The position numbers and the translations under genes are program-made. Shown here in pieces: positions 12,369 through 16,478 of a stretch of DNA of 64,000 bases (the first letter of the stretch is position 1; each line of letters starts with the position of its first letter). The stretch is from Alphaproteobacteria bacterium (GTDB lineage Bacteria > Pseudomonadota > Alphaproteobacteria > Rs-D84): positions 3,354 through 67,353 of the forward strand of contig JAVBUT010000008.1 in NCBI GenBank assembly GCA_031555055.1, in the 5' to 3' direction. The notes beneath the pieces are model-generated. The model saw only the letters and a list, made by a program, of their open reading frames with translations. It searched no databases and was not told the origin of the DNA.

Positions 12369-16478
<4,110 letters not shown>

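Follow-up and report, generated by a model that had tools for sequence, protein, structure and literature searches.

In pyrrolysine decoding (pylT/pylS/pylBCD), UAG is read as a lysine derivative and is still a stop codon in other genes. Within methylamine methyltransferase families, such UAG sites are conserved, and pyl genes accompany them. We know of no use of pyrrolysine in the lineage studied here. The RNA polymerase beta-prime subunit is naturally split in cyanobacteria and plastids, in which rpoC1 and rpoC2 each have their own start signal. Where beta-prime is known to be split naturally, the break falls at a domain boundary and is shared throughout a lineage. The amber allele rpoS(Am) of E. 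coli K-12 persists in laboratory strains, and rpoS is a dispensable gene. TAG is also reported to be read as an amino acid in some gut phages and a few bacteria, crAss-like phages being among the examples given in PMC7886860. Draft genomes may carry wrong codons as well. Chen et al. ('Accurate and Complete Genomes from Metagenomes', 10.1101/808410) reported 13 local assembly errors in a 1.13-Mb metagenome-assembled genome (MAG), and pointed out that uncurated MAGs propagate wrong gene sequences.

In this study, we analysed an in-frame TAG in the rpoC gene of an uncultured alphaproteobacterium, known from one metagenome-derived genome. The whole stretch of DNA analysed is 64 kb long and is referred to below as the window. 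Translation showed that rpoC (12369..16478, minus strand) consists of a single frame of 1370 codons that is interrupted by one internal stop, as an earlier note on this DNA had claimed. The stop is a TAG at codon 75 (16254..16256, minus strand). The context on the reverse strand is ...GAA TGC GCG TGC GGA TAG TAC AAG CGT ATC..., with the TAG at 16256..16254, and a Lys codon lies two codons 3′ of it (TGYGGNAARTAYTRRMG). The alignment to solved E. coli chains (e.g. 8g1s_J) placed the TAG in the column of beta-prime Lys74 in the Zn ribbon, which is flanked by the Zn-ribbon pairs Cys70/Cys72 and Cys85/Cys88. The N-terminal 74 codons (16257..16478, minus strand) begin with an ATG (16478..16476) after AAGGAG and include the first Zn-ribbon Cys pair. 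Codons 76–102 (16173..16253, minus strand) include the second Cys pair and contain no in-frame ATG, GTG, or TTG; these codons would be left untranslated if the ribosome stopped at the TAG. The next in-frame start is the ATG of Met103 (16172..16170), which opens a 1267-codon ORF (12369..16172, minus strand) in the ORF list. The source contig's own gene call (P0003) is this 1267-aa protein, which is 100% identical and starts with MGHIKL.

The full beta-prime with K at position 75 was used as the query in a homologue search, and the best 120 of the 8000 homologues were inspected. These 120 were labelled 'Rickettsiales' or 'Alphaproteobacteria bacterium' MAGs. The window rpoC was 88–91% identical over 100% of its length to the 1366/1369-aa beta-primes of uncultured Alphaproteobacteria. 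P0003 was the only truncated entry among the best 120 of the 8000 homologues; the others were all single proteins of 1366 or 1369 aa. In the alignment of 122 relatives, position 75 was K in 121 and R in one, and none had a stop there. This supports the proposal in the earlier note that the TAG stands for a conserved Lys of the Zn ribbon.

Two relatives were read as DNA, namely GCA_031266915.1 and the Logan assembly of SRR33662496. The gene order secE-nusG-rplKAJL-rpoBC was the same in the window and in both relatives, and both had AAA at codon 75. The earlier note had pointed out that a single AAG-to-TAG change would suffice, whereas AAA to TAG needs two changes. AAG accounts for 34% of the Lys codons in the window's rpoC and the synonymous sites of the gene are saturated, so an AAG precursor at codon 75 is plausible. 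The single change therefore stands as a plausible path, with the AAA of the two relatives counting against it.

We also looked for other samples of the same species. No second genome or fragment was found in a collection of 15 billion proteins, among species representatives, or in a contig index. The protein clusters of the five best matches held no hidden member of the species. Searches for partial proteins of the species with the N-terminal 657 aa and the 74-aa fragment returned only short fragments of relatives at >90% identity. Exact-protein look-up of rpoB, the 1267-aa rpoC call, and the 74-aa N-terminal fragment gave no record of an independent assembly. A species-specific DNA pattern with NNN at codon 75 matched only three unrelated rpoC genes in 185,579 species-representative genomes, and these (Flavobacterium, Opitutaceae, and Chitinophagaceae) had AAG or AAA at the codon. 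Since the protein collection holds no second sample of the species, the TAG rests on a single assembly. Truncations did not pile up at codon 75 in a small and biased sample of short N-terminal beta-prime fragments, of which 0 of 120 ended exactly after CxCG.

The selection on rpoC was estimated as pN/pS from the window's gene against the two relatives. The pN was 0.006–0.017 against a pS of 0.71–0.90 in codons 1–74, and 0.000 against 0.63–0.82 in codons 76–102. The dN/dS over the remainder of the gene was approximately 0.03–0.05, and the synonymous sites were saturated across rpoC (pS 0.61–0.90). Constraint on the 27 codons that separate the TAG from Met103 is thus as strong as anywhere in the gene. 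The root-to-tip length of the window rpoC was 0.057, within the range of its relatives (0.050–0.068). Faster evolution or decay of this rpoC was ruled out by its normal branch length and low pN. Up to essentially the present, this rpoC remained fully functional. With both flanks so constrained, the lesion is of effectively zero age, or is not real, or is translated.

One other position of the same gene differs from its relatives. At codon 466 (minus strand, approximately 15081–15083), the catalytic motif NADFDGDQM reads NADFDGDNM, with AAT in the window and CAA/CAG in the two relatives. The Gln at this position is kept in 122 of 122 relatives, and the Asn of the window's beta-prime adjoins the Mg-binding aspartates. 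The Asn is probably a genuine lineage-specific substitution because two nucleotide substitutions are needed to produce it.

The TAG at codon 75 very probably arose as a single-base artefact during sequencing, assembly, or consensus calling, or else belongs to a non-viable allele captured by the assembler. An error that turned AAG (Lys) into TAG would be the most likely cause; alternatively, the assembler may have picked up a rare non-viable allele. In that case, the beta-prime of the living population would be normal and full-length, with Lys75. We infer the error itself by exclusion, starting from the observed uniqueness of the TAG, the constraint on its flanks, and the termination of other genes at TAG. 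As expected of an artefact or a dead allele, the TAG is a lone lesion in one assembly, it is absent from the relatives, and both of its flanks are under full purifying selection. In most assemblies, indels are more frequent than substitution errors, and this counts against an error.

Lesions in rpoC were also found in the assemblies of relatives. P0130 has a frameshifted tail, P0132 has a deletion and a frameshift, and P0128 has an internal duplication. These three cases suggest that rpoC lesions are common in public metagenome assemblies. P0130 belongs to a cluster of 12 sequences and lies on a 58-kb contig, and some of the lesioned rpoC genes of the same clade are on contigs of 47–58 kb.

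A metagenome scan was performed with the pattern E-C-x-C-G-[TAA/TAG/TGA/TGG]-Y-K-R, which covers the codon-75 position alone. The scan returned 29 loci, of which 26 were chance matches outside rpoC and three were genuine rpoC genes. Each of the three genuine genes was intact except for one TAG, located at this same Zn-ribbon Lys codon. They are a Bacteroidota-like rpoC (L008, R16__coassemble_1643), a cyanobacterial rpoC1 (L012, Ga0136634_10029746), and an Actinomycetota-like rpoC (L027, Ga0325397_100420). Neither TAA nor TGA was found at this codon in a real rpoC in the scan, and no tRNA was found on the three contigs. The recurrence at codon 75 is simply what the scan was designed to find. 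All three genes read TAG TAC AAG, as does the window. From the codon usage of each gene, TAG rather than TAA in all three has a probability of 0.42, and TAC AAG as the next two codons in all three has one of 0.09. The joint probability of TAG TAC AAG in the three matches is approximately 0.04; this value is post hoc, and the coincidence is mildly unexpected. TAG TAC AAG as a mutational hotspot or a signal was not compelling, given the values of 0.42 and 0.09 from codon usage alone.

The scan also gave a rough background rate. From the 26 chance matches, the scanned collection would amount to roughly 0.9 Tb, or approximately 2–3 × 10^5 genome equivalents. The three genuine matches then correspond, as a rough estimate, to approximately 1e-5 per mutational path. 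There are 460 single-base paths to a stop in the window rpoC, which at approximately 1e-5 each gives nonsense lesions in a roughly estimated 0.2–0.9% of metagenomic rpoC copies. This estimate agrees with the one truncated entry among the best 120 of the 8000 homologues, and with the published local assembly errors in uncurated MAGs (10.1101/808410).

The stop codons of the window show how TAG is used in this genome. In a greedy set of non-overlapping ORFs (n = 63), the stops were TAG in 17, TAA in 32, and TGA in 14, with TAG accounting for 27%. At least 11 of the TAG-ended ORFs were confirmed by family: fabH, Omp85-like, rpoB, rplJ, rplA, virB10-like, kef, rsmA, pyrG, truA, and gyrA. Among them, rpoB, rplJ, rplA, and fabH end in TAG exactly where the orthologues of two relatives stop. 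The rpoB gene (16558..20694, minus strand) lies directly upstream of rpoC, and its TAG (16560..16558) is at the same place as the stops of its orthologues, which indicates that TAG is a working terminator here. No second in-frame TAG was found in the conserved genes of the 64-kb window apart from rpoC. When TAG was read as sense, the rpoC pieces merged, and otherwise few ORFs were lengthened or added. A genome-wide reassignment of TAG, TGA, or TAA was ruled out by the ORF statistics together with the stop usage.

This bears on whether the TAG is real and decoded, either by a CUA suppressor tRNA (inserting Lys, Gln, or Tyr), by tRNA-Pyl with pylSBCD, or by efficient near-cognate read-through, so that full-length beta-prime is made. 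We consider such decoding very unlikely. The frame is intact and conserved on either side of the TAG, as it would be around a translated codon, and the TAG falls on a Lys codon, where a Lys-inserting suppressor would restore the residue exactly. The lone TAG at the same codon in the three unrelated metagenomic rpoC genes also speaks for decoding. However, the TAG is absent from all relatives, both the best homologues and the 122 that were aligned, and TAG ends at least the 11 confirmed genes, including rpoB, rplJ, and rplA. An efficient suppressor would extend the products of these and other genes, so TAG would be selected against as a stop, yet it makes up more than a quarter of the stops. 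Basal read-through of approximately 1% or less is too low for an essential and abundant subunit. The base after the rpoC TAG is U, and U after a stop codon is not a leaky context in E. coli.

ARAGORN predicted four tRNAs in the window (Arg-CCT, Trp-CCA, Glu-CTC, and Gln-TTG), none of them with a CUA anticodon, in agreement with the earlier note. The window is approximately 3% of the genome, and a CUA tRNA could lie in the remaining 97% or so. No pyl genes were found among the annotated ORFs of this 3%. The 131 nt around and after the TAG folded no better than shuffled sequences (z = −0.41). Signs of programmed read-through were thus absent at this site, as the stop is not conserved in relatives and has no stimulatory downstream fold. 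No relevant publication on naturally occurring amber codons within the rpoC frame was found in a literature search.

The earlier note had offered three explanations for the TAG. A sequencing or consensus error and a minority or dead allele both fit the evidence. Amber suppression or read-through is disfavoured, since the TAG occurs in no relative, TAG terminates highly expressed essential genes of the window, and neither a matching tRNA, an RNA structure, nor a second in-frame TAG was found in the window. Even less likely is the specific case in which the TAG is in the DNA of the living population and an amber-suppressing tRNA or a Pyl-like system, working alongside TAG terminators, yields full-length beta-prime. 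If this were true, the three rpoC contigs from other phyla, each with its single TAG at this Lys codon, would hint that the Zn-ribbon lysine is recoded recurrently and in a site-tolerant way.

The TAG may instead be a genuine and very recent inactivating mutation, tolerated through a second intact rpoC or carried by a dying lineage. The flank constraint demands a very recent lesion, and our view is limited to one contig, both of which leave room for such a mutation. To our knowledge, however, rpoC is single-copy in essentially all bacteria, and the window's copy sits in the canonical secE-nusG-rplKAJL-rpoBC operon in synteny with its relatives. The other genes in the window are not degraded. 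End-to-end profile matches were obtained for YidC, LspA, RsmA, RecR, pyruvate kinase, ComEC, TruA, Fmt, Def, an RND permease, TolC, and GyrA, and such matches of conserved genes across the 64 kb indicate a lone lesion rather than genome decay. A tolerated mutation is therefore extremely unlikely.

It is hardly credible that rpoC is expressed as a 74-residue N-terminal peptide plus a 1267-residue protein restarted at Met103: an ATG is present at codon 103 and was used by the gene caller, and natural splits of beta-prime do exist (the cyanobacterial rpoC1 found in the scan is an example of rpoC1/rpoC2), but no in-frame start precedes Met103 after the TAG, no Shine-Dalgarno sequence lies 5′ of it (...CGCCGCGAACGTATG), no relative is divided at this place, and residues 75–102 would be lost, i.e. 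28 conserved residues with the second Zn-ribbon Cys pair, although their codons show pN = 0. With two Zn ligands gone, such a restart is structurally implausible, as the earlier note had argued.

Several other features of the window were recorded. A hairpin of heptamer repeats lies in the rpoB-rpoC spacer (16493..16561); it is context and was not linked to the TAG. It belongs to a (TTCGTRA)n family with copies at 16493–16561, 22049–22107, 26959–26986, 32575–32622, 35536–35556, and 46812–46832. The family consists of tandem heptamers TTCGTRA and their inverted copies, with arms of up to 34 nt that are 82% complementary. Most copies are in spacers directly 3′ of stop codons, e.g. those of rpoB and rplA, and two sites are inside annotated coding regions. 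The sequence TTCGTRATTCGTRA (≤1 mismatch) had 19 matches in the window against 0.22 expected. The hairpins may be REP-like elements, terminators, or mRNA-stabilising elements, and a similar element seems to follow rpoB in one relative (L001).

The codon GAG is used for only one of the 211 Glu codons in the window's rpoB and rpoC, at a GC3 of approximately 0.6, and AAG and CAG are common; a relative with a GC3 of 0.70 has GAG in 54 of 211. A tRNA-Glu(CUC) gene is present at 55554–55628. The avoidance of GAG in rpoB and rpoC probably reflects a strong translational codon bias. The pyrG gene (CTP synthase; 40873–42348, minus strand) encodes 491 aa, against 526–534 in the profile. It matches the profile in two stretches, with a gap of approximately 50 profile positions in the glutaminase domain, and this gap could represent a deletion specific to the lineage. 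At the left edge, pepO at first looked broken, but its frame simply runs out of the window. Type IV secretion genes (24591–29269) adjoin the secE-nusG-rplKAJL-rpoBC cluster. They comprise virB9-like (25450–26925) and virB10-like (26942–29269) genes and an ORF in the virB8 position before them, and the same arrangement was found in two relatives (CagX/VirB8; L001 and L002).

A real TAG would make this a striking bacterial example of ambiguous decoding. An essential single-copy gene would rely on amber suppression in a genome that still stops its ribosomal-protein and RNA polymerase genes with TAG. On present evidence, the TAG at codon 75 is not novel biology. The practical value of the case is to show that recoding can be mimicked by a single-base lesion in a draft metagenome-assembled genome. 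A lesion and recoding can be told apart without recourse to the reads by four checks, namely whether relatives share the codon, how terminators are used, how strongly the two flanks are constrained, and how frequent such lesions are in the background.

Compared with the known systems, this locus resembles amber reassignment in having an in-frame TAG in a conserved gene. In amber-recoded genomes, in-frame TAGs are numerous and genes do not terminate at TAG, whereas the 64-kb window has a single in-frame TAG and no fewer than 11 confirmed genes that end in this codon. Pyrrolysine decoding is similar in that the rpoC TAG is at a Lys position and TAG terminates elsewhere. It is different in that neither pyl genes nor a CUA tRNA were found in the window, and 121 of the 122 relatives have Lys at the site and one has Arg. 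The rpoC1/rpoC2 split is likewise a case of beta-prime as more than one polypeptide. That split lies between domains and is lineage-wide, whereas the break in the window is inside the Zn ribbon, costs 28 residues, and occurs in no relative. The rpoS(Am) allele is also an in-frame TAG in a transcription-machinery gene, and it is real and present in living cells. It affects a dispensable gene and is known from many independent sequences, whereas rpoC is essential and its TAG occurs in one assembly. The assembly errors of MAGs described by Chen et al. (10.1101/808410) were found by missing read support, whereas the window TAG is classed by exclusion. The two are alike in that a single lesion interrupts an otherwise intact conserved gene in one draft assembly, and the relatives of the window show comparable lesions in rpoC.
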